Positions 504-15,409 are shown, counted from the stretch's first letter. The stretch: 15,409 nucleotides of DNA from Pseudobdellovibrionaceae bacterium (GCA_041288045.1 JBGGMM010000066.1:1-15409); one strand, 5' to 3'. Program-made: numbers and translations. Notes: generated by a model not told the origin, from the letters alone.

Positions 504-1706
504 TTAAATCACCACTTCACGCGGAAACCCAAACAGATTGTACTGGCTCGCCATCGCAGCTCCGTAAGCGCCAGAGTCAGCAATGCAGAGCCAGTCACCT
601 TCGTTCACTCCAACCAGATGGCGGTTCTTTCCAAGAAAATCCGAAGATTCGCACACCGGTCCCACAACATCGGCGACGAGGTCTTCGCCGGTGGACTTGT
701 TTTGCAGAGGCATGATTCGGTGTTCGGCTTCGTACAGGGCGGGGCGGATCAGATGGTTCATTCCTGAATTGCAGAGGATGAAATTTCTTTCTGAAGTTTT
801 TTTGATGTACTGGATTTGAGTGAGAAGGACTCCGCTTCTTGCGACCAGATAGCGGCCGGGTTCGAATTGGAGTTGGCCTTCGAAGTTTGCGAATTCTTCT
901 TTCAGGATTTGGCAGTAGCCTTCTAAAAATTCGAGATCTACAGCTGCGCTTTTCGAGTAATCAATACCGAGCCCCCCGCCGACGTCCAGCGTGGTGAGTG
1001 GGTAGCCTTGGGATTTTAGGTTTTGGTAGAGTTTTTTGGTTTTTTGGACCGCTTCTTTGAAAGCTGCGAAGTCGTGGAGTTGTGAGCCGATGTGGAAGCT
1101 GACGCCAATCAATGACAATTCTGGCGAGACATTGAGGATTTGCAGGCAATCTTTGATCAGGGCTTCTTCCATGCCGAATTTATTTTCGCGAAATCCCGTC
1201 GCAATGTAGGGGTGAGTTTTCGCGTCCACATCGGGATTGAATCTGAGGACCACGGGGATTTTTTTTCCTGTGGGGTTTTGGGCTGCTAACGCCGCAATTC
1301 TTTTTAATTCCGAGGGGCTTTCCACGTTGAATTGCCGAATCTGCGCTTTGAAGCACTGGCGGATTTCTTCTTTGCTTTTGGCGACGCCTGAGAAAATAAT
1401 TTGTGAGCCGGTGAAGCCGGCCTCGAGGGCGCGTTTTAGTTCGCCGCCGCTGACGATGTCGACACCGCAGTTTTGTGATTTGAAAAGTTTGAGGACTTCC
1501 AAATGCGAATTGGCTTTCATGGCGTAGTGAACTGTGAATCTTTGCGTGAGCACTTTGGCGATGGCCGATTGAAACAGAAAAAGCCGATCCATCAGGCCTT
1601 TTCGTGAATAGACGTATGTGCCCTCTTGCTCTTCTTTGACGAGGGATAAAAGACGCACACCATCGAGTTCCAATTCTTGATTTGAATTGTATTCGAGTTT
1701 TGACAC
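504..1706 (-). CDS. lysA: Diaminopimelate decarboxylase
   Basis: 400 aa. Fold-type III PLP decarboxylase motifs YAMKAN (PLP lysine), HIGSQ, DVGGG, EPGRYLV, GPVCESSD, GAYG, plus the LysA-typical THPYIATG...KFG. GTG start with AGGAG at 1723-1719. Confidence 0.95.
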   Translation of the reverse strand: MSKLEYNSNQELELDGVRLLSLVKEEQEGTYVYSRKGLMDRLFLFQSAIAKVLTQRFTVHYAMKANSHLEVLKLFKSQNCGVDIVSGGELKRALEAGFTGSQIIFSGVAKSKEEIRQCFKAQIRQFNVESPSELKRIAALAAQNPTGKKIPVVLRFNPDVDAKTHPYIATGFRENKFGMEEALIKDCLQILNVSPELSLIGVSFHIGSQLHDFAAFKEAVQKTKKLYQNLKSQGYPLTTLDVGGGLGIDYSKSAAVDLEFLEGYCQILKEEFANFEGQLQFEPGRYLVARSGVLLTQIQYIKKTSERNFILCNSGMNHLIRPALYEAEHRIMPLQNKSTGEDLVADVVGPVCESSDFLGKNRHLVGVNEGDWLCIADSGAYGAAMASQYNLFGFPREVVI

Positions 1707-1728
1707 GAGTTCGCTTTTCTCCTACATC
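1700..1728 (+). promoter_or_regulatory. Putative sigma70 promoter of mpaA-dapD, possibly giving a leaderless mRNA
   Basis: TTGACA (1700-1705), 17 nt, TACATC (1723-1728), 8 nt, ATG at 1737. No SD on the plus strand. The -10 box is imperfect. Confidence 0.5.
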
Positions 1729-1736
1729 TGATGGGC

Positions 1737-2414
1737 ATGAATCAAACTTTCGTCTTTGGCAAAAGTGCCCTGAATTTGCCGATCGCAGCCTACCGATTTT
1801 CCAATGGCGGTGCAACGCCTTCGGCAAAAGTTTTGATTCTCGGCGGAGTGCACGGAGACGAAATCGAAGGCGTGATCGCCGCCCACGGACTTTTAGAGTC
1901 TTTCCTCCAGAATTTTCCCTTCCGTTTGGATTTGGTTTTGGTCCCAGCTTTCAATATCGACGGAGTCCTTCACCGCACGCGCACCAATAGCCGGGGAGTG
2001 GATCTGAACCGCAACCTCCCCACCAAGGATTGGTCCCCGGTGATAAAGACCCCCAGGTACCACCCAGGCACTGCCGCCAACAGTGAGCCCGAAAACCAGG
2101 CACTTTCTCGTTTCATCGAAACAGAAAAGCCAAATTTTATTTTAAGCCTTCACTCCTGGCACCCGGTTTTAAATGTGAACGGCGATTGCCTGAAAGAAGC
2201 CGAAGTGCTTTCCAGATGGACCGGATACAAAATCGATTCCGACATCGGCTACCCAACCCCAGGCTGCCTGGGAACCTATGCTGGCATCGAAAGAAATTCC
2301 CCGACACTGACTTACGAAATCGAAAGGGGACTGGCGGCTGAACCGATTTTACGAATCCATGTTCCCGCCATTTTAGAAGCGCTCAAAGAAACCGAAAAGC
2401 GAGGTGGCCAATGA
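1737..2414 (+). CDS. mpaA: M14-family zinc carboxypeptidase, murein peptide amidase A (MpaA)-like
   Basis: HxxE zinc motif (GGVHGDE), RTNSRGVDLNRN, LSLHS, GYPTPG, terminal catalytic Glu (TYEI). About 225 aa, no signal peptide. Alternative ATG at 1731. Confidence 0.8.
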   Translation: MNQTFVFGKSALNLPIAAYRFSNGGATPSAKVLILGGVHGDEIEGVIAAHGLLESFLQNFPFRLDLVLVPAFNIDGVLHRTRTNSRGVDLNRNLPTKDWSPVIKTPRYHPGTAANSEPENQALSRFIETEKPNFILSLHSWHPVLNVNGDCLKEAEVLSRWTGYKIDSDIGYPTPGCLGTYAGIERNSPTLTYEIERGLAAEPILRIHVPAILEALKETEKRGGQ

Positions 2415-3235
2415 ATTCTCAATTGATCGATCAGCTCTACGCCGATTTGCAGAGCAAAAGAAAAATCGATGATCTCACCTCAGAAGAAATCGCCTCCGTT
2501 GAGCAAACCATCGCAGCCCTGGATCAGGGAACTTTACGGGTCTGCGAAAAAACCCCGGCCGGTTGGGAAACGCATCAGTGGGTGAAAAAAGCGATCTTGC
2601 TTTATTTCCGCATGAAGAAAATGCACCCAGTGCAAGCTGGCGATCTGGAATTCTACGACAAAATCCCTCTCAAATCCTGGTCCCCAGAAATGGGAGTGCG
2701 AGTGGTCCCTCACGCCATCGCTCGCTACGGATCCTTCTTGGAATCCGGCGTGATCTTGATGCCTTCTTTCGTCAATATCGGAGCCCATGTGGGATCTGGC
2801 ACCATGGTCGACACATGGGCCACAGTCGGAAGCTGCGCTCAAATTGGAAAAAACGTGCATCTCTCTGGCGGTGTCGGCATTGGCGGAGTTCTCGAACCAT
2901 TGCAGGCCAGTCCCGTCATCGTTGAAGACAATTGCTTCCTCGGCAGTCGCTCCATCGTCGTTGAAGGTGTGATTCTCGAAGAAGGAACTGTCCTCGGAGC
3001 TGGCGTGGTTCTCACTGGCAGCACAAAAATCATTGATGTCACGGGGTCTGAGCCTCGCATTTTGCAAGGCCGAGTGCCGGCCAATTCGGTGGTCATCCCA
3101 GGCACGCAAACAAAGAAATTTCCAGCTGGAGAATTCGGTGTTCCCTGCGCTTTGATCATTGGAAAAAGAAAACCCAGCACGGATTTAAAAACGTCTCTCA
3201 ACGATGCTTTGCGGGATTTTCAAGTCAGCGTTTAG
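2411..3235 (+). CDS. dapD: 2,3,4,5-tetrahydropyridine-2,6-dicarboxylate N-succinyltransferase
   Basis: 274 aa. WVKKAILLYF, DKIPLK, hexapeptide repeats and VDTWATVGSCAQIGKNVHLSGGVGIGGVLEPLQA. ATGA overlap with the mpaA stop and SD GAGGT at 2401. Confidence 0.95.
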   Translation: MNSQLIDQLYADLQSKRKIDDLTSEEIASVEQTIAALDQGTLRVCEKTPAGWETHQWVKKAILLYFRMKKMHPVQAGDLEFYDKIPLKSWSPEMGVRVVPHAIARYGSFLESGVILMPSFVNIGAHVGSGTMVDTWATVGSCAQIGKNVHLSGGVGIGGVLEPLQASPVIVEDNCFLGSRSIVVEGVILEEGTVLGAGVVLTGSTKIIDVTGSEPRILQGRVPANSVVIPGTQTKKFPAGEFGVPCALIIGKRKPSTDLKTSLNDALRDFQVSV

Positions 3236-4025
3236 GTTCGATATGCACGACTTCAAATTGATGAATTTCAAGTGGCTTAAGGATCTGCTCAGCTAAAGTT
3301 TGCGTGTGAACCGAAAGATCAGTCGCAAGAATATGCATTTCGCCTTTGTCTTTGCCAGTACGCGAAAGCTTTCCCGATTGAAAAATCAGTTCCAATTGCT
3401 CAGCAATCGCTTTGCCTGAATCCACTAGCTGGACCGAATTGCCAGCTGCTTTTTGAATTGCCGATTTCAAAAGCGGGTAATGAGTGCAACCCAAAATCAA
3501 AGTATCAATCTGATAAAGCAAAAGCGGCTGCACGTAGCGATAAGTGATCAAATTGGTGATTGGATCTTCCCAGAGACCCTCTTCGGCCAGTGGCACAAAC
3601 AGCGGACAGCTCTGCGAATAGACTTCAGCATTTTCTGAGAGTTTTTGAATGGCCAAGGAATAAGCTTGGCTGGCAATGGTGGCTCTGGTGCCAAGCACTC
3701 CGATTTTTTTGTTTTCACTGGTTTTAAAAGCTTGCTCGGCACCCGGTTCAATCACATTGAAAACAGGAATCCCCATCCACTCTTTTTCCGCCACTTGCGA
3801 AGAAGCGGTGTTGCAAGCAATGACGAGAGCGTCGACTTTTCGATCCACTAAGAAATTGAGAACTTGTTCTGAATAAGCGCGAATGGTGTCGGGAGATTTC
3901 GTTCCGTAAGGAAGCCTGGCAGTGTCGCCGAGATAAATGAAATCTTCGCCGGGAAAATGGCTCGCCAGTTCGCGAAGAACCGTCAATCCCCCCACGCCCG
4001 AATCAAACACTCCGATTTTTGCCAT
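3225..4025 (-). CDS. murI: Glutamate racemase
   Basis: FDSGVGGLTV, GDTARLPYG, ACNTAS and LGCTHYP (both catalytic Cys). Start moved to ATG 4025 (MAKIGVFDSG). The 3' end overlaps the dapD 3' end by 11 bp. Confidence 0.96.
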   Translation of the reverse strand: MAKIGVFDSGVGGLTVLRELASHFPGEDFIYLGDTARLPYGTKSPDTIRAYSEQVLNFLVDRKVDALVIACNTASSQVAEKEWMGIPVFNVIEPGAEQAFKTSENKKIGVLGTRATIASQAYSLAIQKLSENAEVYSQSCPLFVPLAEEGLWEDPITNLITYRYVQPLLLYQIDTLILGCTHYPLLKSAIQKAAGNSVQLVDSGKAIAEQLELIFQSGKLSRTGKDKGEMHILATDLSVHTQTLAEQILKPLEIHQFEVVHIEPKR

Positions 4026-4033
4026 GTCTTTTG

Positions 4034-4062
4034 ATGGTGAAGGGAAATGACGTTGAAGTAAA
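4034..4062 (-). promoter_or_regulatory. Putative murI promoter (leaderless)
   Basis: TTTACT (4062-4057), 17 nt, CACCAT (4039-4034), 8 nt, ATG at 4025. No SD. It lies just downstream of a strong terminator, so murI needs its own promoter here. Confidence 0.4.
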
Positions 4063-4067
4063 CCCAG

Positions 4068-4099
4068 AAAAAACAAAACCCGCTGTTTCAGCGGGTTTT
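4068..4099 (-). terminator. Rho-independent terminator, possibly bidirectional
   Basis: Perfect inverted repeat AAAACCCGCTG-TTT-CAGCGGGTTTT (4075-4099). The minus-strand tail reads UUUUGUUUUUU. Confidence 0.88.
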
Positions 4100-4238
4100 A
4101 TCGAAGTCTTTTCAGTTCAATTCACAAAGAACAACTTGGGAATCCATCGAAAGAAAGGCTCTCAAGCTAAAATCAGATTACCGGTTTCAAAGTGTGGGGT
4201 CAAAAATACCAAGGTCCAGTTTCTTACATCGAGAAATG
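4068..4238 (-). ncRNA. Candidate intergenic small RNA, or long 3' UTR of the guaB-like gene
   Basis: About 170 nt with no credible ORF, bounded by a promoter-like TTGACT-19-TAAAAT (4274-4244) and the strong terminator. No known family recognised. Confidence 0.3.
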
Positions 4239-4291
4239 CCTGTATTTTAAGCACTCACCAGTGCAATGAGTCAAAATCAGGGCCCAACTAG

Positions 4292-5338
4292 CTATCGGAC
4301 TCCATGGGCTCGGGACTCGCTGTATCCAGCCGAACTCATCTCAATGAGTCGGGCTTTGTCGCGAATTTCAGAAATGCTCGTTGCATTGATATAACTCATG
4401 CCGCTACGAATTCCTCCGGTGAGCTCCATAATCACGTCTTTGACGTGTCCTTTGACACTGACAAATGTCGACTCCCCCTCAGGAGCCATGCCTTCTGGCA
4501 GGCCTCCTCGCCAATTGACCTGGGCCGACCTCGAGGCCATTCCCCGGTATTGCTTGCGACCGTTTTGAATTTCACCGGGAGTTTCAATGGTTCCAGCCAG
4601 CATGGATCCAAGCATCACAGTGCTGGCTCCAGCTGCAAAAGCTTTGACGATATCACCAGAAGTTTTAATCCCACCATCGGCAATCACGGGGACTCCGTAA
4701 TCCTCGGCCACTTCCGCACAAAGAGCGATGGCCGTGAGCTGCGGAACTCCAGCTCCAGTGATGATTCGGGTGGTGCACATCGAACCTGGTCCAATACCCA
4801 CCTTGATGGCGTCAGCCCCAGCTTCGATCAATTCTTTCGCAGCCTCGGGCATGGCCATATTGCCGGCAATGATTTCAATTTCAGGTTGAGTGTCTTTGAG
4901 CCATTTCATCACATCGATCATGGCGGAGGAATGTCCGTGAGCGATATCGATGGTCATGACATTCACTCCGGCTTTGATCAATGCCAGAGCTCTTTCTTTG
5001 TAATCGCCATTCACGCCGATGCTGGCTGAGAGAATTTTGGCTCCGCTGCTTTTCACTTTTTGCACGAAAGCCACTTGCTCGTCGATTGTGACAAAACGGT
5101 GCAAGATTCCAACTCCACCTAGCGAGTTCATGCTGATGGCCATTTCCGCTTCGGTGACAGTGTCCATGTTGGCAGAAATGATGGGTGTTTCAAGGCTCAG
5201 TTTTTTGGTGAGTTTGGAGGAAAGGCTTGGATCTCGTCTGGAGCGGACTTCGGATTTGCTCGGAACAATCAAAACGTCGTCAAAGGTCAGGCCTCGGCCC
5301 CGAGTTTTAATGTCTTTCCATTGAAAGAGAAGATTCAT
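4292..5338 (-). CDS. IMP dehydrogenase / GMP reductase family protein lacking the CBS domain (possibly GMP reductase)
   Basis: 348 aa. [27 protein letters not shown], catalytic loop [39 protein letters not shown] upstream. Confidence 0.9.
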
Positions 5339-6017
5339 GTTTCATCCTCCTAATAAACAATCGCCAAAGAATTTGAATAAAACAAAATTGCACCAGCATT
5401 TCAAGCAAACAAATGAAAAGCGCTGAGACAGGGGTTTTCCAGATCATTTTCCATTCATCAAAAACAGTGAAAACACCCGGGATGAAAATTGAAAAAAGAA
5501 AAAACAAAACCAAGAGCTTCAGAAGCTGCCCTTTGGCCAAAGCTCGAGACGTCTGCAAAGCATCCCGATCACCCACTTGGTAGATCGAATCAAAGCAAAC
5601 CACAAAGGGGACAAAGAGAAGCTGAAGAAAGCGGTAAAGACCAGGCAGGATCAAAAGAAAAGACCACAGCATAATCGATCCCCAAGAGCGCATCTGTTCA
5701 ATCAAGCTCTGCTCAAAAAATCTTTTTAGAAACCGCAATGGAGATTCTTGGGTCGATCCCGAAAGTGCCACCAAGCTGCTGGCCAATGGATACATCAAAC
5801 TGAGGAGCAAAGAAAAAGCACCATACAACCACACCAGAGGGCTTGTGCCTTGCGGGGCCATGAGCATGGATTCCATCTTCATTGTGATCCACTGATCAAG
5901 GCTGGTGCCAATCAAAGTAATGATAAAAAGAGGGAGGGCGACTTTGCGCAGAGCTTGCCAAAATTTCATCAGCAAATTGAAGTCCATAGCCGAGTGCTTG
6001 GCAATCTCTCTTGACAT
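5307..6017 (-). CDS. Hypothetical polytopic inner-membrane protein
   Basis: About 5 hydrophobic segments. The pattern 'LLILPGLY...LFVPFVV...ALQTSRAL.KG' resembles DUF975-like membrane proteins. The stop overlaps the next gene by 32 bp, so they are probably co-transcribed. Start uncertain (6017 or 5987). Confidence 0.7.
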   Translation of the reverse strand: MSREIAKHSAMDFNLLMKFWQALRKVALPLFIITLIGTSLDQWITMKMESMLMAPQGTSPLVWLYGAFSLLLSLMYPLASSLVALSGSTQESPLRFLKRFFEQSLIEQMRSWGSIMLWSFLLILPGLYRFLQLLFVPFVVCFDSIYQVGDRDALQTSRALAKGQLLKLLVLFFLFSIFIPGVFTVFDEWKMIWKTPVSALFICLLEMLVQFCFIQILWRLFIRRMKHESSLSMERH

Positions 6018-6038
6018 CTTTCTGCGTTGCTCTAAGGT
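6011..6038 (+). promoter_or_regulatory. Putative sigma70 promoter of the MipA/OmpV gene (leaderless)
   Basis: TTGACA (6011-6016), 16 nt, TAAGGT (6033-6038), 8 nt, GTG at 6047. No SD. Confidence 0.55.
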
Positions 6039-6046
6039 CAAAGACC

Positions 6047-6931
6047 GTGAAATTTCGAATCTGCTTGTTTGTTCTTTTTTTCAGCTTTGTATTTCTCAGT
6101 CAGGCCCAAGCTGAAAATTCACAGGAAAAATCTCTTTGGGAGTACGGGGTTGGCGCCGGCTTCGCTCGCATTTCAGATTATCCAGCTTCTGATGAATCCC
6201 GAGATTTTTTCTTTCCCTTTCCCACATTTCAATACCGAGGCGATATTCTAAGAGCTGATGACCGAGAAGGAGCTAGAGCCTATCTTTTGCGCTCAGCCAA
6301 GCACTCTATCGAAATTGGTGGCAGTGGATTTGTGGCTCTCAAGTCCGATGACAATGAAGCGCGAAAAGGCATGGAGGATCTGCCGTGGAATTTGCAGTTG
6401 GGTCCGCAGTGGGTGTATCGCCCCATGGATGATTTTGAATTCAAATGGGGGATTTACCGATCCATTCTGGCCAATGAGCGAATGACCCGGCTTGGTGGTT
6501 GGGTGTCTGAAATGCAGGGGATTTGGCATGTGGATCAGTGGTTGCAAAATTCGGGAGCTTTTGGGATTTCGACCATGCAAGGGCGCTTTTCGCTCACTCT
6601 CAAAGGTGGGGATCAGGATTTTCACGCCCTCTACTTTGATGTCAGTGAAAAGGACGTGACTCTGGCTCGTACCTTCTATGAATCCAGAGAGGGTTTTTTA
6701 TCCGCTACTTTTTCTTATTATCAGTCCGCCAGTTTTCGCAGATGGAGCATCTATACTGGAGTTGCCGATTCTCATTACCAGTATTCGGCCAATCGAGAAT
6801 CGCCACTGCACAAAGCCGATCGCAATTTTTCTTTTTTCGCTGGGGTGACTTACAGATTGAGTGAATCGGAAAGCAAATCTGTGCCAGTGGAGTCGCCTGG
6901 CGGGATTCTCAAGCGCTTTCAGCCCAATTAA
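6047..6931 (+). CDS. MipA/OmpV family outer-membrane beta-barrel protein
   Basis: GTG start gives the signal peptide MKFRICLFVLFFSFVFLSQAQA. Family-like N-terminus WEYGVGAG...DYPASDE...PFPTFQYRG, LYFDV, ANRESPL and last strand FFAGVTYRL. Confidence 0.8.
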   Translation: MKFRICLFVLFFSFVFLSQAQAENSQEKSLWEYGVGAGFARISDYPASDESRDFFFPFPTFQYRGDILRADDREGARAYLLRSAKHSIEIGGSGFVALKSDDNEARKGMEDLPWNLQLGPQWVYRPMDDFEFKWGIYRSILANERMTRLGGWVSEMQGIWHVDQWLQNSGAFGISTMQGRFSLTLKGGDQDFHALYFDVSEKDVTLARTFYESREGFLSATFSYYQSASFRRWSIYTGVADSHYQYSANRESPLHKADRNFSFFAGVTYRLSESESKSVPVESPGGILKRFQPN

Positions 6932-7926
6932 GATTTATCCGCCAAATGTTTTTTATTGATGATGTTTTTCAGCGCAAGGAAAGTTTGTTTGTTGAAGGGC
7001 TGACCCAAAATATCATCGATATAGGTCACAGCCTCATCAGGAGTGAAGCTTTTGCCTTCTGGTTTTTGATTGAAAAGAAGTTCTGAAAAAAGATCGGCAA
7101 GGCCGACGATTTTCCCCAGTGGGCTGATTTTGATGTCCCTTAATTTTTTTGGAAAACCAGTTCCTTGGGCATTTTCATGGTGTTCGGCGACGATGAAGAG
7201 CACGTCTTGAGGCACGTCTTTGATGTCTCTGAGCATTTCGACGCTTTTGAGAGGATGCTGTTCGTAGATTTGCACTTCATCCGGAGTGAGAAGATGTTTT
7301 GGTTTTTCCAAAATTTCTTTAGGAACGAATTTCAAGCCGACATCATGGAGAAGTGCTCCCATCGCAACTTTTTCCTGAGCCTGTGGCAAATTGACATTCA
7401 TTTCTTCGCAAAGAAGCATGGCGATCATACAGGTGGTCATCACGTGCTTGGCGTCATCATTGGGAAGAGATTTTAAAATATCCAAGATGTCGTTAAAGGC
7501 ATTTACCTGCTGGCTCATTTGAGTGACCAGCTGAGAGACTTTTTGGATTTTAGCCACAGATGAAAAGCCACTGGTTTTCAGCGAGCTCATGGCGTCATCG
7601 GTGAGGCTGGTGAGAAATCTCACTTTGACTGAATCAGGAATGGTTTTCTGCTCCAGCACTTTGCTGGTGATCAGAGTCACTTGTTGGATGAGCACAGCGT
7701 ATTCGAGCTTGTTGACGTAAACGCCAAATTCATCTTTTTTAAAAGCATGTAAATTGGAAAAAGCGGCTTTGTCGCCCTTTTTTCCAATCAATAAATAATT
7801 ATTTGGATTCATTTTGATGTAGATATTGGCAGGCAGGGTCATGCCTTCAAAGAAAAAATCTTTGGAGACTTCAATCACCTGATCATCTGAGGGGCTTTCT
7901 GTCGCCCTATTGCTTGCGCTTGACAT
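6928..7926 (-). CDS. HD-GYP domain protein (putative cyclic dinucleotide phosphodiesterase)
   Basis: ALLHDVG, HP, HHENAQGTGFP (GYP position reads GFP) and LADLF. Start set at ATG 7926, downstream of the sigma28-like promoter. Stop overlaps the MipA stop (TTAA). Confidence 0.88.
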   Translation of the reverse strand: MSSASNRATESPSDDQVIEVSKDFFFEGMTLPANIYIKMNPNNYLLIGKKGDKAAFSNLHAFKKDEFGVYVNKLEYAVLIQQVTLITSKVLEQKTIPDSVKVRFLTSLTDDAMSSLKTSGFSSVAKIQKVSQLVTQMSQQVNAFNDILDILKSLPNDDAKHVMTTCMIAMLLCEEMNVNLPQAQEKVAMGALLHDVGLKFVPKEILEKPKHLLTPDEVQIYEQHPLKSVEMLRDIKDVPQDVLFIVAEHHENAQGTGFPKKLRDIKISPLGKIVGLADLFSELLFNQKPEGKSFTPDEAVTYIDDILGQPFNKQTFLALKNIINKKHLADKS

Positions 7927-7934
7927 CACTTTAC

Positions 7935-7961
7935 TTATCGGTTTTTTCGACACTGGGCTGA
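7935..7961 (-). promoter_or_regulatory. Putative sigma28 (FliA) promoter
   Basis: TCAG-N15-ACCGATAA versus consensus TAAA-N15-GCCGATAA, followed by 8 nt and the ATG at 7926. Confidence 0.6.
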
Positions 7962-8036
7962 AGAGAAGCTTCACACAAAGTGACTCAAACTGAGATGCGA
8001 AAAGAGCTCAGGACCTCAGTCTTGATTTGCTGTCCC

Positions 8037-8065
8037 TTGCTTTGTGGATCTCAAGTGTTTAGGTT
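8037..8065 (+). promoter_or_regulatory. Putative sigma70-type promoter of the LEA_2 gene
   Basis: TTGCTT (8037-8042), 17 nt, TAGGTT (8060-8065), then SD GAGGT at 8074-8078. Confidence 0.35.
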
Positions 8066-8082
8066 GAATGGCAGAGGTGAGG

Positions 8083-8520
8083 ATGAAAATTTTTTGGATC
8101 ATTATGATTGCAGGGGCTGTTTCGGCCTGCTCAGGTTTGCACAAAGATCTGATTGAACCCAAAGTGAATTTACAAAACGTTCAGGTCACGGATCCGACTT
8201 TTTCAGAGGCCACTTTGGTTTTTCATTTTCAAGTCGAAAATCCCAACACAGTTCCTCTTGAAGTGGACAAAGTGAATTACAATCTCAAACTCAATGGCAA
8301 AGCTTTCACCAGCGGGGTTCTGGATCAGGGTTTGAAAGTGGATTCGAAATCCTCCGCTGTGATCCCGCTGCCAGTTCGTGTGAAGTATGCGGATTTGGCT
8401 TCGTCCATCACCACCCTTCTCAGTCAGGGGAGCACTCCCTATGAATTGGATGGCTCGGTGAAAGTGGGCTGGTTTTCAGTTCCCTTTAAAAAAGATGGCG
8501 AAGTGAAATTGCAAGAGTGA
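8083..8520 (+). CDS. LEA type 2 / WHy domain lipoprotein
   Basis: Lipoprotein signal MKIFWIIMIAGAVSA-C, P-x-V start of domain, conserved V-x-NPN motif, and C-terminal YELDG...VPF...G. Confidence 0.87.
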   Translation: MKIFWIIMIAGAVSACSGLHKDLIEPKVNLQNVQVTDPTFSEATLVFHFQVENPNTVPLEVDKVNYNLKLNGKAFTSGVLDQGLKVDSKSSAVIPLPVRVKYADLASSITTLLSQGSTPYELDGSVKVGWFSVPFKKDGEVKLQE

Positions 8521-8536
8521 AATCAGCTGACGAAAT

Positions 8537-9316
8537 TCAGCCTGGTGAGGTCGCTGGCGGAGTTTTTAGATCGGCCGAGGCGGGACGAGAAAGTTCTTCG
8601 TCAAACTCATCCAAGGAATAAATTTTAAAAGCATGACGAATCACGTGCTGAGCGACGTTTCGAACCGGCACTCCGCCTAAAGTCACCCCGTGCTCAGTGC
8701 CTTTATGGGCATGGCCATGAAAAGCCACATTGGCGCCGCCATCATCAATCGCTTCGGCGAGCAAGTAGCTGCCAAGAAAAGGATAGATTTCTTTTTTTTC
8801 TCCTAACAGTGTTTGCGCTGTGGGGGAGTAGTGAAGAAGGGCGATTTTGTAATCTGTTTGAAGTGCCAGGAGTCCTTCTCGCAGGTCATCGGCCATTTGC
8901 TTGGTGTGACCCACGAAGGCTTTCATTTCTGGCTCGCCAAAGTCGCTGCAGCAGGCACCCATAAAGCCGCCACCAAATCCTTTGAGACCGTAAATCCCAA
9001 TGGAAGTGTCTTGGGATTTTAAAATGGTGCCACTGTGATCGAGCACTCGGACTTTGGCGGCCTCGAGGATTTCTTTGACCTCGTCTTCGCGGTCTAAGTG
9101 GTAATCGTGATTGCCAAGCACAGCGATGACTGGGACCGGGCATTCGCGCAGATCATCGGCGAGAGCTTTGATTTCATCGGGGTGGCCCACTTGGGTCAGG
9201 TCACCGGCAATCAGAAAAGCGCAGGCTTTGCCTTCAAGCTCAGGCCAGTAGCGGCTGAGGCGCCCGCGCGAATTTCGATCAAAGTGAACGTCTCCGACGG
9301 CGGCGATTCGAATCAT
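8537..9316 (-). CDS. Calcineurin-like metallophosphoesterase (Icc/CpdA-related)
   Basis: All five motifs present: GDVH, AGDLT, GNHD, LLHY, HGHAH. The ATG at 9316 overlaps the upstream TGA (ATGA). 259 aa. Confidence 0.92.
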   Translation of the reverse strand: MIRIAAVGDVHFDRNSRGRLSRYWPELEGKACAFLIAGDLTQVGHPDEIKALADDLRECPVPVIAVLGNHDYHLDREDEVKEILEAAKVRVLDHSGTILKSQDTSIGIYGLKGFGGGFMGACCSDFGEPEMKAFVGHTKQMADDLREGLLALQTDYKIALLHYSPTAQTLLGEKKEIYPFLGSYLLAEAIDDGGANVAFHGHAHKGTEHGVTLGGVPVRNVAQHVIRHAFKIYSLDEFDEELSRPASADLKTPPATSPG

Positions 9317-10281
9317 TGCAAAGCCTCGACATCGCCAGGGGCCTTCCATTCAGCCACATGCAGTTGATCTTCGATCTTATGTTCCGGAGCCATTTCGCGA
9401 ATCAATTCTAGAATCGCTTTGTGCTGGTCGACGGATTGGATTTGGCCGCGGACCAAGATGTGTTTGTCTTGCAAAAGCACATCAATGCCAAGGCCACCGA
9501 TTTTTTCACTCTTCACCAGAGCCTCGCGGACTTTGGCGGCTAAATATGTATCTCCCATTTCAGTTCTCACTTGCGGCCTTGGGCCCATCTGTGGATTTTT
9601 ATCATGGCTGCGATAATCTTTTCGGGTGCTGCCATTTTCAAACACGGTTTCAAAAATTCTTTGGATGGGACCATTGGGAACCCAGATGTCTGAAGATTGA
9701 GCGTAGAGAAGAAGTGCCAACAATCTTCGCGGCGCTTTTCGCGAGCGGTGAACCAGATAATCCCAATTGAGCTTGGCTTGTGAAAGCACAGACAGAGCGT
9801 CGTGCCAGTGGTGGTGGCCTTCTTCGGAGTGCACGGCGCATTTAATCAGAATGAAATCCTCAGGGCTGACCATTTTCACTTGTCGACCGTGATAATTGAC
9901 AAGGACCGAGTGATCCTTCATTTCATCGTCGAAATAAAAGCCGCCTTCGGATCGAAAAATGATGTCGATCAAAACATTTTCTTTGTAGGCTTTAAAAATC
10001 CAAGAAGGGTTGAAACGATTGGTTTCAAAGCCATATTCTTTGAGGACCTCCAGCAACGCATCGGCATCTTCAGGTCTGACAAAGAGATCAATGTCTTGAG
10101 TGGGTCTGGGGCGACCAAGGCCGCTGGCTGCGACTCCGCCAATCAAAGCGTAGTCGACTTTTTTTTCTTCAAGTGCATCGAGAGTGGCAAAGAGGGCCGC
10201 ATCAAAGCGTCGGCTCTCCTCTGTGTTGATCGAGCTGGATTGTCCTTTGGAATCATCATGAGGCCGTCCCAAAACCAACAT
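9313..10281 (-). CDS. Pol-beta-superfamily nucleotidyltransferase with C-terminal BON domain
   Basis: IGGVAA...GRPRPTQDIDLFV (GG plus DxD) and a third Asp in LIDIIF. C-terminal BON: DTYLAAKVREAL...IDV...ILVRG...IEDQLHV (~9552-9355). SD AGGAG (10293-10289) lies 7 nt before ATG 10281. 322 aa. Confidence 0.87.
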   Translation of the reverse strand: MLVLGRPHDDSKGQSSSINTEESRRFDAALFATLDALEEKKVDYALIGGVAASGLGRPRPTQDIDLFVRPEDADALLEVLKEYGFETNRFNPSWIFKAYKENVLIDIIFRSEGGFYFDDEMKDHSVLVNYHGRQVKMVSPEDFILIKCAVHSEEGHHHWHDALSVLSQAKLNWDYLVHRSRKAPRRLLALLLYAQSSDIWVPNGPIQRIFETVFENGSTRKDYRSHDKNPQMGPRPQVRTEMGDTYLAAKVREALVKSEKIGGLGIDVLLQDKHILVRGQIQSVDQHKAILELIREMAPEHKIEDQLHVAEWKAPGDVEALQ

Positions 10282-10315
10282 TGCAGATCTCCTTTTTTGG
10301 CTCATCGCTCTCGCC

Positions 10316-10335
10316 AGAAAAAGGCATTCTGCCCC
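10316..10335 (-). terminator. Weak terminator-like hairpin in the NTase 5' leader
   Basis: GGGGCA-GAA-TGCCTT followed by TTTCT. Only 4 Watson-Crick pairs plus 2 G-U pairs. Confidence 0.2.
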
Positions 10336-10369
10336 AACTCTGACGAATACTTTGCTCAATGTTAAGGAG

Positions 10370-10385
10370 TGCAAGCGACGTTCCA
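10370..10385 (-). promoter_or_regulatory. Sigma54 (RpoN) -24/-12 promoter
   Basis: TGGAACG-TCGC-TTGCA versus consensus TGGCACG-N4-TTGCW. GG-N10-GC spacing is exact, the site is intergenic, and it points toward the NTase gene. Confidence 0.78.
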
Positions 10386-10390
10386 AAAAC

Positions 10391-11788
10391 CTAATGGAAA
10401 CTGATGGTGTGGCCGACCCATTGGGTGATGGTATCGATAGTTGTCGATGGGGTGTAGGTGCCTGTGCTGGAGACGACTTTTTCAATCACACTGACAGAGG
10501 GAATGTTGCCTCCAGTGACGACATGTTTGTAGCCACTGGCCATAGAAACTGTTGCAGCTCCTCCGTTGAGGGTCATTTGAAATCCTAAAATCAGTTCATT
10601 TGCGTAGGTCGTCGTGACCGCGCCACCACTAATTGTCGTAGAAAATCCCGTGGCACTTGCAATTTGATCCACAGGACTGACGGGATCAAGGCCCTTGTAT
10701 TCCATGATGTTCAAATGAAGTCTCACTGCGCTGCCACTGATATTGGCTGTGACAATGTTCTGACCTGCAGTGGCAGCAACGATATTTTTAGCATAATAAA
10801 TATATTGAGTCGTGCCTGTGCCGCGGATGGGACCGCTGGCCAAAGTGTAGGTATTTCCCCTGGTATCGGAAATGGAAGTGACCGTTGCGGTGCTGTGATC
10901 AAATCCCACTTGGGCGATGATCAGATTGCCAGCAGTTTGTGGAGAGGTAAATGCTGTGCTGATTGTCGTGTCTGAAGTGTCGTAGGAATTGCTTTGAACC
11001 CGGCGGATGGTGGTTTCGCTGACGGCTCCAGAATTCTTCTTAAAGGCTGCCACTTCCAAAACCCAATCCGAGTTGTTCGCATCTTGAGTGGCCGTGGCGT
11101 TGTAATTGCCAGTGCTGGTGACCACTCGGTGCTGGGAGAAATTTCCAGCAAGATTTATAGCCGAAGAATAATTGGTGCCGTTAGCAGCGAGGCTCCAGGC
11201 CGTGTAGCCAGCTGAGAAAAGCAGACTGCAAGCCTGCGTGGTGGTGAGGTTGGCTGTGGACATGGCTGTCGAACTGACGCTGCCCGATCCTGAAGCGGCC
11301 ACTTGAAAGGGACTGGCAGTATCGAGACCCTTGTATTCATGTGCGAGGAAATTGATTCCATTCTTACTCGCTGAAAGATTGACAGTGATCGTATTATTTG
11401 CCGAAGCGGCAATGTTTTTTGCATAGTAGATGTACAATGTGCTGCTGCTACCGCGAATCGGACCAATCGCCAGAGAGTAAGTGTTTCCAGCTGTGTCGCC
11501 GACAGAAGAGACTGTTCCTGTCGCGGTATTCCAGCCAATTGAAATGATATTTAGATTTCCGGCTGTCTGAGCGGCTCCAAAAAAGGCCGAGATCGAACTG
11601 ACCCCGGCATCGATATTGCCAGCGTGTTGGACGAGCCCTGCTGTCGAAGTGTCACAGGTGATCACTCGTCTTCTCATCATGAGGGCGTTGAAAAAGGCAT
11701 CGGTCTCAGCCATTGGAAAGATCAAGGCCAAAAGACAGAGTGAAATCTTGAAGTTTGAATTCCATCTTCTTTTCACACCAGACCTCAC
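10391..11788 (-). CDS. Secreted protein with two tandem ~200-aa beta-rich domains; putative fibre-associated adhesin
   Basis: Signal peptide-like N-terminus (KRRW...ISLCLLALIFPMAETDA), then FFNALMMRRR, then two homologous domains. The GTG overlaps the fibre stop (TAGTG). Alternative GTG at 11776 with SD GAGGT. Confidence 0.78.
   Translation of the reverse strand: MRSGVKRRWNSNFKISLCLLALIFPMAETDAFFNALMMRRRVITCDTSTAGLVQHAGNIDAGVSSISAFFGAAQTAGNLNIISIGWNTATGTVSSVGDTAGNTYSLAIGPIRGSSSTLYIYYAKNIAASANNTITVNLSASKNGINFLAHEYKGLDTASPFQVAASGSGSVSSTAMSTANLTTTQACSLLFSAGYTAWSLAANGTNYSSAINLAGNFSQHRVVTSTGNYNATATQDANNSDWVLEVAAFKKNSGAVSETTIRRVQSNSYDTSDTTISTAFTSPQTAGNLIIAQVGFDHSTATVTSISDTRGNTYTLASGPIRGTGTTQYIYYAKNIVAATAGQNIVTANISGSAVRLHLNIMEYKGLDPVSPVDQIASATGFSTTISGGAVTTTYANELILGFQMTLNGGAATVSMASGYKHVVTGGNIPSVSVIEKVVSSTGTYTPSTTIDTITQWVGHTISFH
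10394..11635 (-). repeat. Intragenic duplication of a ~200-aa domain (~11635-11040 and ~11006-10394)
   Basis: QTAGNLNI...VSSVGDTAGNTYSLAIGPIRG...YIYYAKNIAA...HEYKGLDTASP versus QTAGNLII...VTSISDTRGNTYTLASGPIRG...YIYYAKNIVA...MEYKGLDPVSP. Confidence 0.9.
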
Positions 11789-14700
11789 TACTGCAGATTA
11801 TCAATCATGTTGTAAATAACGGTGTTGTTGAAAACGGTGAAAGTGAAAAGCACATCTTTCGAAGCCGTTGGAGCCACGTTGCCGCCGGAAGCTTTGAAAG
11901 TGTAACCGCCAGAGGCAAAGTTACAGACGCCAGAGTGTGCAGCGGCGCCTGAGATGTAAAGAGTGTAAGCGGCGCCATCTTTGAGATTGCTGAAGGTGAT
12001 GATCTTCGTTCCATCGCAGAGGAAAGTGGCCAGTTCCTGTTGGTTTCCGTTGGCCCAAGAGATCGTGTTGCTGATGTTGCTGGTTGTGAGGTAAGTGGAA
12101 CTGATCGCCAACTGACCGCGATCACCGGCAGTGCCTCTTGTGGCCTGTGTTCCAAGCGTGACGTCACCAGAAGTCGTAATATTGCCAGTGAATTTCGAAG
12201 CGCCGACAACATCCAGTTTGACGCTAGGGCTTGAGGTTCCGATTCCCACAGATCCATCTTGGGAAATCGCCAGTCGAGTCGTGTTGTTGGTCATAAAAGC
12301 CAAAGGACGGCTGTCCGTGGTTCCCAGAGAAGCGTTTGAGCCGAAGGCATTCCCGCCATTCACAAAACCAGTGGTCGAAGTCAGCGGCGTGATCCAGTAG
12401 AGAAGACCAGAAGCGTTGGTAGCCAAAGCCTGACCGCTGGAACCATCAGCCGAAGGAATTGTGAAAGTCACATCTGAAGCAATATTATCTGCAGCTCGCA
12501 AAGTGACTGTGTTGGTGCCATTCGCAACCAGTTCTCGCATGAGAATTTGACCCGTATTTCCAGTCGAAGTTCCATAAGGACGTGAAGTGATCGCACCGCT
12601 CACATCCAAGCTTGTGCCTGGAGCATTTGTTCCGATTCCCACATTTCCGGAACTCATGATTCTCATTCGTTCTTCAGGCTGGGCATCTGAGGTTGTGCTA
12701 CGAGCTCCGAAAATCAAATCACCTTTTGATTGCCCAGCACTGCTGCTTTCCTGGTAACCCATATAGGCCGGAGAATAAGTGTTGGATGGGGTGGTGTATC
12801 CAAATCCAATCAAGCGGTGACCGTTGGATGTGCTTTCATTACCACCGATTTGCAAATAAGTATTGGCATTGTTAATGGCTGAGATCATTCCTGGATAGGC
12901 GATTTGAACGAATGAAACTGGATTGGTGGTGCCAATCCCGACAGAGCCGTCTTGAGAGATGGCCATGCGAGTGGCATTGTTCGTCATGAAAGCCAAAGGC
13001 CGAGTGTCTTTGGTTCCCAAGGTCGCATTGACGCCAAAGGAATTTCCACCATTGGAATAAACATCTGTACTGGCAGAACCACCGGCAGACATGTCAATCC
13101 ATTTCCAAACACCAGAACCGTTGGTTGAAAGCACTTGTCCGTTGGATCCATCACCAGAAGGCATTGTGAAGCTCACATCAGCTGCGAGAAGATCCGGCGC
13201 TTTGAGAGTGACAGTGTTGGTTCCGTTTGTAGCAAGTTCGCGCATCAGGATTTGACCAGCTTGGCCAGCGCCTGTGCCGTAAGGACGAGACGTGATCGCG
13301 CCAGTTACATCGAGACTTGTTCCAGGAGAACTTGTACCAATGCCAACGTTTCCAGAAGACAAGATGCGCATTCTCTCACGGCCTGTATTGTCAAGTGTGG
13401 TTGAAAAGTAGAGATCTGCATTGAAATTGGGATGAACATGATTTGTCACGACACTGTTAATTGAGGACTGTTCAATTTTTTGTGAGTTTGTCGACGTCCC
13501 TTGGAAAAGCAACGAAGTGGCGCTGCCGGTGGCTGCTGCTCCGTTGTTGTCAAGACGTAATGGGATTGCGATGCCGCCGGAATTGCCAGTCACAATGCGA
13601 GTGGATTCGCCAGCAGGGTTGCGGATATCTAAAAAGTTTTCCGGAGTGTATCCGCCAATACCGATCTTACCATCTTGATAGATCTTGAGGCGTTCAACAG
13701 CGTTTGTTTGAAAAACCAGAGCGCCCTCAGCCGCGTTTGGTGACGAAGGTTGACCTGCGGAAAAGAAAATATTACCACGCTGATTGGCGCTGGCTGAATA
13801 AGAGTTCCCACGAGCTAAGAAATAAGGACCATGGGCTTCGGATCCAGAACCAAGTCCAGCAGCAAAGAATCCCATGCTGGCATCAACAGCTCCTGAAGAA
13901 GTTGAGCGCAAATAAATCAAATTGTCAGTCGAGCCTGTTCCCTGGTTGAGCAAGAGTCCACCAGTTAAAGTCAGTCGGTTGCTGACAGACATAGTTCCGT
14001 CTTGAGAAATCGCGACACGAGTGGTGCCGTTGGTTTGCAAGTTGAGTGGCTGACCATCATTGGTTCCAAGATCAGCGGCTTGGCCGAAAGAATTTCCGCC
14101 ATCGACAAAGCCTGAGCTTCCGCCGCTGGCATCAATCCATTTCCAAACACCAGAACCATTGGTTGAAAGAATCTGTCCGCTCGATCCATCACCAGAAGGC
14201 AGAGTGAAGCTCACATCAGCAGCAAGAACATCTGGGGCCTTGAGAGTGACTGTGTTCGTTCCGTTCGTAGCAAGTTCGCGCAAAAGAATTTGTCCGGTGT
14301 TGCCAGTTGCAGTCCCGGTCGGTCGAACAGTGATTGCGCCACTGACATCCAAGCTTGTGCCTGGAGACGTGGTTCCAATCCCGACGTTCCCAGTGGCTGA
14401 ATCCAAAAGGAGAGTGGTCGGCGACCATGAAGTTCCATTCCAAAAAGAAAAGCCCAAATCATTCTGTTCGGCTGCAGTCGCCCAGGCGTTTCCGCGAGCA
14501 TAAATGTTCCAACCTTTTGCCGTGGCCTGACCGACATAATCAGAGCCATTGCTCATGGTTTGCAGATTGAGAGCGACCTGATTACCACCGGCCGATCCAG
14601 GAGTGACATAACCCATGCTGGTGGCGGCCCCGTAAAGAGTGAGGGCGTATTGCGGATTGGTGGTTCCGATCCCCACATATCCGTCTGTCTTGATGGTCAT

Positions 14701-15409
14701 TCGAGAGCTGCCGTTGGTTTCAAAGTTCAAATTGAAATTGTCATTGGTTCCCAATGTGGCATCGGCAGAGAAAGAGTTTCCGTTTTGAGCAAAATTAGTT
14801 CCGCCTAACACTGCAGTGGCAGCATAACAACCAGCAACTCCTGAAGCATCAAAGCTCACCAATTGATTGAGACCGCAAGTCAGAGAGGTCAAAGCACTGC
14901 CAGTTCCATTCGCCACAACCAAAGCGTTAGAGGTGAATGAGGTTGCTGCAGTCCCACCCTTGGCAATCGGAACTGTGTTCAGGCTTAAGATCCCAGCACT
15001 GGTCATCGTCGCATCACCAGAAACCACTGAATTGTCCCAGCTGGTGCCATTGTAAATCATGATCTGGCCAGTCGCCGTACCTGCAGTGATTGTTTTGCCC
15101 TTGAGCTTATCAACAGAATTCGAATTGGAAGCTCCACTGACATCACCACTGAGGTTCGAACTCGCACTCAGGGGAGTGAAACCTAAAGCTGTGGTGATAT
15201 CACCGCTGACAAGATTGGCTCCTGTTGTGACTCGGCCTTTGGCATCGACTGTAACTTTAGTGTAAGTGCCAGCAGTGACTCCGGTTGTATCCAATGCCAA
15301 AGTGCCAGCACTTGAGATCGTCGCATCGCCAGAGACGATGCTATTCACCCAGCTCGTGCCATTGTAGATCATGATTTGGTTGGTGGCAGTCGCTGCCGTC
15401 ACCGCTTTG
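11788..15409 (-). CDS. Large phage-tail-fibre-like surface protein (mosaic adhesive trimer-like), 5' end truncated by the window edge
   Basis: More than 1204 aa, with the frame open to the edge. Rich in T/G/S/N/A, with repeated G-N/S-VGIGT-x-x-P motifs, GVTAGTYTKVTVDAKGRVT and TLPSGDGSSGQILSTNGSG. No S74 chaperone motif recognised at the C-terminus. Confidence 0.88.
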   Translation of the reverse strand, partial: KAVTAATATNQIMIYNGTSWVNSIVSGDATISSAGTLALDTTGVTAGTYTKVTVDAKGRVTTGANLVSGDITTALGFTPLSASSNLSGDVSGASNSNSVDKLKGKTITAGTATGQIMIYNGTSWDNSVVSGDATMTSAGILSLNTVPIAKGGTAATSFTSNALVVANGTGSALTSLTCGLNQLVSFDASGVAGCYAATAVLGGTNFAQNGNSFSADATLGTNDNFNLNFETNGSSRMTIKTDGYVGIGTTNPQYALTLYGAATSMGYVTPGSAGGNQVALNLQTMSNGSDYVGQATAKGWNIYARGNAWATAAEQNDLGFSFWNGTSWSPTTLLLDSATGNVGIGTTSPGTSLDVSGAITVRPTGTATGNTGQILLRELATNGTNTVTLKAPDVLAADVSFTLPSGDGSSGQILSTNGSGVWKWIDASGGSSGFVDGGNSFGQAADLGTNDGQPLNLQTNGTTRVAISQDGTMSVSNRLTLTGGLLLNQGTGSTDNLIYLRSTSSGAVDASMGFFAAGLGSGSEAHGPYFLARGNSYSASANQRGNIFFSAGQPSSPNAAEGALVFQTNAVERLKIYQDGKIGIGGYTPENFLDIRNPAGESTRIVTGNSGGIAIPLRLDNNGAAATGSATSLLFQGTSTNSQKIEQSSINSVVTNHVHPNFNADLYFSTTLDNTGRERMRILSSGNVGIGTSSPGTSLDVTGAITSRPYGTGAGQAGQILMRELATNGTNTVTLKAPDLLAADVSFTMPSGDGSNGQVLSTNGSGVWKWIDMSAGGSASTDVYSNGGNSFGVNATLGTKDTRPLAFMTNNATRMAISQDGSVGIGTTNPVSFVQIAYPGMISAINNANTYLQIGGNESTSNGHRLIGFGYTTPSNTYSPAYMGYQESSSAGQSKGDLIFGARSTTSDAQPEERMRIMSSGNVGIGTNAPGTSLDVSGAITSRPYGTSTGNTGQILMRELVANGTNTVTLRAADNIASDVTFTIPSADGSSGQALATNASGLLYWITPLTSTTGFVNGGNAFGSNASLGTTDSRPLAFMTNNTTRLAISQDGSVGIGTSSPSVKLDVVGASKFTGNITTSGDVTLGTQATRGTAGDRGQLAISSTYLTTSNISNTISWANGNQQELATFLCDGTKIITFSNLKDGAAYTLYISGAAAHSGVCNFASGGYTFKASGGNVAPTASKDVLFTFTVFNNTVIYNMIDNLQ
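12253..14391 (-). repeat. Three dispersed copies of a ~132-136-aa module (14391-13996, 13353-12946, 12648-12253)
   Basis: Each reads GNVGIGT.SPGTSLDV.GAIT.RP.GT...GQIL.REL..NGTNTVTL.A...AISQDG. A 26-nt exact match TCAATCCATTTCCAAACACCAGAACC occurs at 13094-13119 and 14132-14157. Confidence 0.93.
14980..15402 (-). repeat. Two copies of a ~36-aa repeat in the fibre's proximal part
   Basis: TAATATNQIMIYNGTSWVNSIVSGDATISSAGTLAL versus TAGTATGQIMIYNGTSWDNSVVSGDATMTSAGILSL. Confidence 0.88.

Follow-up and report, generated by a model that had tools for sequence, protein, structure and literature searches.

A stress-linked nucleotidyltransferase and metallophosphoesterase pair with a BON domain, a candidate writer/eraser module

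A two-gene operon on the minus strand of a contig from a Pseudobdellovibrionaceae bacterium (GCA_041288045.1, JBGGMM010000066.1:1-15409; this whole stretch of 15,409 nucleotides is hereafter the window) encodes a nucleotidyltransferase (NTase) fused to a BON domain, P0001, and a calcineurin-like metallophosphoesterase (MPE), P0002. We found that the two enzymes are strictly paired and that their orthologues in S. meliloti are induced by the stress sigma factor RpoE2, in agreement with a preliminary description of the DNA that had predicted a self-contained, stress-linked NTase-phosphoesterase module without characterised function. In the full-text literature, searched with most subscription journals and supplements outside its reach, we found no functional study of the pair. 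Whatever the substrate, one enzyme probably writes a mark that the other erases; our best reading, stress-induced reversible tailing of tRNA 3' ends, is more tentative.

Among 301 genomes of the phylum, a profile of the NTase-BON protein matched 42 at E ≤ 1e-10, 30 of them strongly (E ≤ 5e-19) and 12 weakly (1e-10 to 2e-15), and the MPE occurred in exactly the 30 strong-NTase genomes, always at E ≤ 3e-94; the split between strong and weak matches was set after viewing the data, and kin genomes are not independent. The two genes were adjacent in all 32 phylum loci that we read, that of the window included, being co-oriented in 29 and divergent in three, and the ATGA-type overlap was kept in 28 of the 29 co-oriented loci. 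The synteny that the preliminary description proposed to look for is conserved, and one-to-one co-occurrence together with the retained coupling argues for a shared process. The closest named orthologous loci belong to Bdellovibrionales metagenome-assembled genomes (78% and 73% identity), most likely the order of the window as well, and P0001 and P0002 are each single-copy in their assembly. The module is accessory: none of seven same-genus genomes carries it, three of these being at least 90% complete. The correlation between NTase and MPE identities (Spearman 0.54) was not counted, as it is expected from kinship. Three genomes of one family (loci L031-L033) have divergent NTase and MPE genes, a BON-less NTase of alphaproteobacterial type and a canonical sigma54 motif. 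Genome G254 has the NTase twice but no second MPE; the additional copy (C5:15134-15781) is interrupted by an internal TGA and is probably a decaying duplicate.

Outside the phylum, 128 plasmid or megaplasmid records were matched by the MPE and 127 by the R. etli NTase. A tblastn search of plasmids with P0001 found nothing because the plasmid orthologues are only 23–27% identical, and they were reached via the MPE. Among six regions opened, that from Streptomyces has a separate gene for each of NTase, BON and MPE, and those from two Rhizobium, Azospirillum and Sphingobium have the NTase followed by the MPE, with no BON. A metagenome scan, covering 6 of 64 parts, yielded 563 confirmed MPE stretches out of an estimated ~6,900 pattern matches; in the best 80, which were kept, an NTase lay within 1.5 kb in 56 and a BON domain in 66, and at the 35 metagenome loci with at least 1.3 kb upstream the corresponding counts were 29 and 28. 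The BON domain was fused to 30 of 82 near-complete NTases, separate in 38 and not seen in 14 (some on short contigs); the fusion described earlier is one of three architectures. Phage carriage was considered and rejected: no MPE was confirmed among 73 pattern matches in viral contigs, neither the MPE nor the R. etli NTase was found in phage records, and viral fold matches belonged to remote LicD and poly(A) polymerase types.

In the AlphaFold model of P0001, a disordered linker at residues 218–240 joins two domains predicted with confidence (mean predicted local distance difference test score (pLDDT) 81.9, predicted template modelling score 0.62). Compared with 48,161 solved chains, its NTase domain matched best MenT1 (8an4; Z 18.1, root-mean-square deviation (rmsd) 2.3, 170 of 195 residues aligned, 16% identity), followed by ANT(2'') (Z 13.0), TM1012 (12.6), LnuA (11.3), MenT3 (11.3) and MenT4 (10.4), with CCA-adding enzymes (Z 7–8) and the CD-NTase CdnE (6.4) lower down; the model has the bilobed MenT/AbiEii fold with its C-terminal helical lobe. 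The Pfam families DUF2204 (52.7 bits, cut-off 20.3), NTP_transf_5 (48.7, cut-off 31.2) and Aminoglyc_resit (29.2, cut-off 21) all matched P0001. In a profile alignment, MenT1 residues R37, T39, D41, D43 and K137 correspond to R59, T61, D63, D65 and K147, and by its spacing D161 would be the equivalent of the motif IV residue D152. Across 82 NTases, G48, D63, D65, W94 and D106 are invariant, K147 is kept in 78 and D161 in 81, within a motif that differs between clades. The intact GG, DxD and D motifs of the earlier description are present (G48-G49, D63-x-D65 and D106); of the Pol-beta-fold families that it had considered, the MenT1/DUF2204 type is the one favoured by structure, whereas the second-messenger branch falls among the weaker readings.

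MenT1 (Rv0078A, of MenAT1; DUF1814/AbiEii-type) shares with P0001 its predicted fold and the R-x-T-x-D-x-D motif, and its motif III lysine aligns with K147, D161 being a putative motif IV aspartate. It adds pyrimidines to tRNA 3'-CCA ends, which requires D41, K137 and D152, and its antitoxin silences it by inducing auto-phosphorylation of T39 (PMC11375011); tRNA 3' ends are tailed by both MenT1 and MenT3 (PMC11375011, PMC10435456). Unlike MenT1, P0001 belongs to a family under stress sigma factors, and its partners are an MPE enzyme and a BON domain rather than a MenA helix or an AbiEi-type regulator. We infer that the NTase works like MenT, without filing it as a MenAT member. Nor was it filed with the CD-NTases of cyclic oligonucleotide-based antiphage signalling systems, given the low rank of CdnE, no PADLOC match and no recurring effector gene; membership of a defence system was rejected because the NTase has no PADLOC match. 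Net charge was discarded as an indicator of RNA binding: each of the 82 NTase domains came out neutral to acidic, but the aligned portion of MenT1, counted by hand, is net acidic as well.

P0002 matched Pfam Metallophos at 53 bits (cut-off 21.5) and gave a confident AlphaFold model (mean pLDDT 92.7). The metal ligands of the superfamily (DxH, GD, GNH, H and GHxH) are invariant in all 118 family members gathered, and every ligand expected from the preliminary description is present in P0002 (D9, H11, D39, N69, H70, H162, H202 and H204). The closest folds were aq_1956 (Z 19.9), PptH (19.2; rmsd 3.8, 228 aligned), MPPED2 (19.2), TT1561 (19.1), Lmo2642 and Rv0805 (18.1). With the metallophosphodiesterases PptH (Rv2795c), Icc, Rv0805 and MPPED2, the MPE has in common the fold (Z 18–20) and the full binuclear metal site; it differs from them in sequence (15–21% identical) and in the near-invariant family motifs KGFGGGF, GE and EI[YF]PFLG. 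GNH phosphoesterases can cleave both mono- and diesters. PPP-type Ser/Thr phosphatases were absent among the 50 fold matches listed, a result still compatible with such an activity. PptH is a diesterase, inactive on p-nitrophenyl phosphate, and by taking phosphopantetheine off carrier proteins it opposes its transferase (PMC8557913); it is the eraser of a protein writer/eraser pair with a phosphopantetheinyl transferase, whereas the partner of the MPE is an NTase. Since the MPE lies in the diesterase fold group with PptH, cleavage of a diester between a nucleoside monophosphate (NMP) and its acceptor is favoured over that of a phosphothreonine monoester. Predictions of a complex between NTase-BON and MPE scored 0.45, against 0.00 for the best control, with runs agreeing in at least 84% of contacts and partner pLDDT of at least 90. 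The score is weak support for contact: of 157 solved complexes 116 reach the mark used, as do 2 of 215 mismatches, but at ≤ 0.60 only 18 of the 157 are found, along with both mismatches.

The BON domain of P0001 scored 30.1 bits in Pfam (cut-off 27). Of 96 aligned BON domains, 11 have a gap at position 246 and 82 of the other 85 have a tyrosine there, where OsmY has Ala and another BON of the same genome Met; G279 is kept in 95 of 96 and E319 in 99% of 78. Where separate, the BON is a protein of 80–90 aa. In most loci the BON lies directly 5' of the MPE. Eight BON-less NTases carry instead a C-terminal C[RQ]G extension, with Tyr at the matching position in six. The same fusion as in P0001 is a row in Table 1 of Bryant et al. 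2020 (PMC7806268), the cluster 'One BON and one DUF2204' of 80 proteins, 77 from Actinobacteria; the section consulted mentions no function, MPE partner or regulation.

Control by a stress sigma factor was seen in S. meliloti 1021, in which the orthologous open reading frames on pSymB, 93442-94260 and 92735-93445, are SM_b20082 (NTase) and SM_b20081 (MPE), matched by coordinates (PMC7268258 supplement). Overexpression of RpoE2 raises SM_b20082 by log2 4.0 (~16-fold) and SM_b20081 by log2 2.2 (~4.6-fold) (PMC6180224 Data Set S1); both genes are absent from the promoter data set of that paper. Upstream of the alphaproteobacterial loci stands the EcfG motif GGAAC-N16-YGTT, exact in four of five and GCAAC in Azospirillum, and with the RpoE2 induction this places the S. 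meliloti orthologues in the general stress regulon, a statement that does not extend to the window's own promoter. Among 39 loci from metagenomes and Streptomyces, 10 were preceded by a SigB/SigF-type motif (0.61 expected). Neighbours at other loci are typical stress-cluster genes, encoding a SigB-type sigma factor, STAS, CBS, YflT, DUF892, topoisomerase IB, SDR and Zn dehydrogenases; recurrent neighbours are lineage-specific, and besides BON no third gene is conserved across lineages. In transposon sequencing (Tn-seq) in lysogeny broth (LB), SM_b20082 and SM_b20081 were non-essential, with 80 and 86 insertions (PMC7268258); rows for both genes were not found in those supplements of a second S. 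meliloti Tn-seq paper that were searched (12 of 18).

In the window, the operon is preceded by TGGAACGTCGCTTGCA (10385-10370), the sole match there to TGGMAC-N5-TTGCW, with 0.06 expected and one present in 10 of 200 shuffles, which upholds the near-consensus sigma54 promoter motif proposed earlier. The broader label 'sigma54-driven' probably fits the lineage of this window only; in other phyla the promoter motifs are of EcfG/RpoE2 or SigB/F type. A relaxed motif, TGG[CA]-N7-TTG[ACGT], occurred upstream in 23 of 30 loci of the phylum (1.33 expected); it was relaxed after inspection. The canonical TTGC stands in six of these loci, and the other 17 carry a variant, in most cases TTGA, that sigma54 may also use. 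The gene rpoN was not found in the assembly itself, which is 83% complete; it is present in all five relatives tested, and the assembly encodes 10 GAFTGA-type activators. The upstream gene stops at 10391 with no terminator before the promoter motif, so read-through from that gene is also possible. A stricter sigma54 motif likewise lies 5' of flagellar-looking genes of the same genome, which we take to be flgF- and fliL-like. One contig (G000:C113) has four sigma54-type motifs, at about 7360, 9920, 15058 and 15472, three of them before small unknown proteins; together they could represent a lineage-specific stress regulon. In 12 loci (L009-L012, L015, L018, L019, L024-L027 and L040; for example L024:1023-1343, minus strand) a small hydrophilic protein is encoded divergently from the NTase, and in seven of these its gene has a sigma54-type motif to itself, on the opposite strand; the protein has no Pfam match, and its C-terminal end is presumably a KGG-like stress repeat.

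How the pair might work is suggested by its closest characterised relatives. A stress sigma factor would co-express NTase and MPE as one module; the NTase, as a MenT1-like writer, would tail tRNA 3' ends and block protein synthesis; the MPE, as eraser, would take off the added nucleotides and make this brake on translation reversible; and the BON domain could be a sensor or brake that sets whether writer or eraser prevails. We prefer this reading, tentatively, on two grounds: tRNA is the substrate of the one close fold that has been characterised, and of its family, and the partner is of the diesterase branch. Several observations weigh against it. The tRNA substrate is predicted from likeness of fold, and a shared fold does not establish function; identity to MenT1 is 16%; Pfam AbiEii stays under its cut-off on P0001 (17.9 vs 22.5 bits); and by sequence profile LnuA beats MenT1 (E 7e-06, in the N-terminal third, vs 7e-04 over 126 positions), with an alignment confined to the first 65 profile positions. 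Of the 82 NTases, no more than 63 retain R59 and as many T61, and one clade lacks both; 15 have no Ser/Thr at position 61 and retain the MPE, and the region around D161 varies between clades. For the eraser, the five best MPE folds lie within ~2 Z units, are not separable and name no substrate. Host ribonucleases have been proposed to repair tailed tRNA (PMC10435456), which would lessen the need for a dedicated eraser; removal of MenT3 tails by Orn was not found in PMC11541572 and plays no part in this reading. The tolerance of SM_b20081 for its 86 insertions in LB suggests that the MPE is not a standing antitoxin, yet RpoE2 acts chiefly in stationary phase and under stress. Pairing, too, has gaps: 6 of the 35 metagenome MPE loci with sufficient upstream sequence show no NTase nearby, and a Nonomuraea region (L039) has BON and MPE without one. 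In that region (6680-8738) the genes for topoisomerase IB, BON and MPE follow one another, and an NTase is absent within 8 kb.

Protein could be the substrate instead, a possibility that we hold to be rather doubtful: the NTase would put an NMP on a protein hydroxyl, likeliest that of the conserved BON tyrosine, and the MPE would cleave the resulting phosphodiester, as in the PptT/PptH pair. GlnD and PII are an analogous case of reversible protein nucleotidylation. The near-invariance of Tyr246, shared by neither OsmY nor the other BON of the genome, the company of a BON, fused or separate, at most NTases and near 66 of the best 80 metagenome MPEs, the matching Tyr in six of eight C[RQ]G extensions and the place of PptH, tied among the top MPE folds, all speak for such a target. 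However, the BON profile was built on an alignment with an invariant Tyr, which biases towards Tyr, the residue could belong to an interface, both R. etli extensions have Phe, 14 of the 82 loci (some on short contigs) have no visible BON, and the closest characterised fold of the NTase acts on tRNA. It is unlikely that the MPE is an activator rather than an eraser of the product; the NTase would then be a tRNA toxin of MenT type, kept silent by auto-phosphorylating Thr61, perhaps at the prompting of BON, and the MPE would be its dedicated phosphatase. The GNH motif of the MPE is compatible with monoesterase activity. T61 does align with the auto-phosphorylated T39 of MenT1, host phosphatases dephosphorylate AbiEii-p and MenT3-p in vitro, the in vivo activator being called unexplored (bioRxiv 10.64898/2026.01.19.700257, PMC11541572), loss of the MPE is harmless in LB and the complex prediction lends weak support; but the best structural matches of the MPE are diesterases, and where Ser/Thr is missing at position 61 its active-site and family motifs are unchanged, which is not decisive, as many of those 15 NTases have Ser/Thr one position earlier.

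A small product for the MPE to hydrolyse, either a signal molecule or a nucleotidylated metabolite or antibiotic, is suggested by the next NTase folds (ANT(2'')-Ia, TM1012 and LnuA), by the Aminoglyc_resit match and by Rv0805 and MPPED2 among the top MPE folds, yet we consider it improbable. ANT(2'')-Ia and LnuA have in common with P0001 the N-terminal NTase lobe and a profile match, but not an aligned C-terminal lobe, which with K147 and D161 follows MenT1, nor an eraser partner; P0001 stays far below the NCBIfam cut-offs for Lnu and ANT(2'') (13.6–18.5 vs 325–350 bits), CdnE ranks low, no receptor, effector or transporter gene recurs beside the pair, and an eraser would make little sense for antibiotic inactivation. 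Least probable, and very much so, is a classical addiction or anti-phage toxin-antitoxin system, or else two co-regulated stress enzymes with no common substrate. MenT and AbiEii relatives are indeed toxins of toxin-antitoxin and abortive-infection systems, and the distribution is patchy within both the genus and the phylum sample; against this stand the strict co-occurrence and kept ATGA coupling, the lack of any phage or viral homologue found and of a DNA-binding antitoxin gene, PADLOC results limited to one partial match, for the MPE, and non-essentiality of both S. meliloti genes in LB, stress conditions being outside those data.

The BON and DUF2204 fusion had been catalogued; what appears to be new is a MenT-like enzyme with an enzymatic partner under stress-sigma control. 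It is conceivable, if on balance slightly doubtful, that the pair is a core stress-response part across phyla, a domesticated MenT-like NTase with its own phosphodiesterase that sets a reversible mark on tRNA ends or the BON tyrosine as a dormancy switch, under three stress sigma factors in three phyla. Many genes of general-stress regulons are still 'hypothetical', and SMb20082 and SMb20081 gain concrete predicted biochemistry in a tractable species. Were tRNA the substrate, a MenT-type enzyme would have a dedicated enzymatic eraser in ordinary stress physiology; were the MPE a phosphatase of the NTase, it would answer how a phosphorylated MenT/AbiEii toxin is reactivated in vivo; and were the BON tyrosine the target, cytoplasmic single-BON proteins would be modification acceptors.

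The layout of the operon is given in Table 1. Its Shine-Dalgarno sequence and ATGA coupling are as first described, and both enzymes lack a hydrophobic N-terminal signal sequence, as had been stated, on reading the N-termini by eye without a predictor. P0001 has a second in-frame ATG at 10305; close homologues begin at the Met equivalent to 10281.

Table 1. Features of the NTase-BON/MPE operon (positions in the window)
Feature	Position	Strand	Basis
NTase-BON fusion gene P0001 (322 aa)	9313..10281	-	Pfam and AlphaFold model
MenT1-like nucleotidyltransferase domain, residues ~22-214 (G48 G49 R59 T61 D63 D65 W94 K97 D106 K147 D161)	9640..10218	-	profile and fold comparison
BON domain, residues 244-310; family-specific Tyr246 (codon 9546-9544), then conserved P-x-x-x-E tail	9352..9552	-	Pfam and alignment
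ATGA stop/start overlap of P0001 and P0002 (translational coupling)	9313..9316	-	sequence and conservation
Calcineurin-like MPE gene P0002 (259 aa), Icc/PptH-like branch	8537..9316	-	Pfam and fold
Sigma54-type -24/-12 promoter motif TGGAAC-N5-TTGCA	10370..10385	-	pattern scan; motif also 5' of orthologues L001 and L002
Shine-Dalgarno AGGAG, 7 nt 5' of ATG 10281	10289..10293	-	sequence

A recent transfer of the operon was considered and rejected: its G+C content (50.6%, genome 46.5%) is like that of the flanking coding DNA. Convergent with the MPE gene and 16 nt from it is a gene for a LEA_2 domain lipoprotein-like product (8068-8520, plus strand), of a stress-associated family; no such gene was seen next to the orthologues L001 and L002. 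On the other side, genes at 11788-15402 and 10391-11788 (minus strand) encode long Gly/Thr/Ser-rich proteins (1204 and 465 aa) that contain internal repeats and match no Pfam or NCBIfam family, the shorter gene ending 6 nt 5' of the sigma54 motif; they resemble fibre or adhesin proteins of Bdellovibrio. Further along, the stop regions of genes for an HD_5 (HD-GYP-like) protein (6928-7974, minus strand) and a MipA protein (6011-6931, plus strand) overlap, and 504-5338 holds what we take to be housekeeping genes, for diaminopimelate decarboxylase, murein peptide amidase, DapD, glutamate racemase and an IMPDH/GMP-reductase-like protein.

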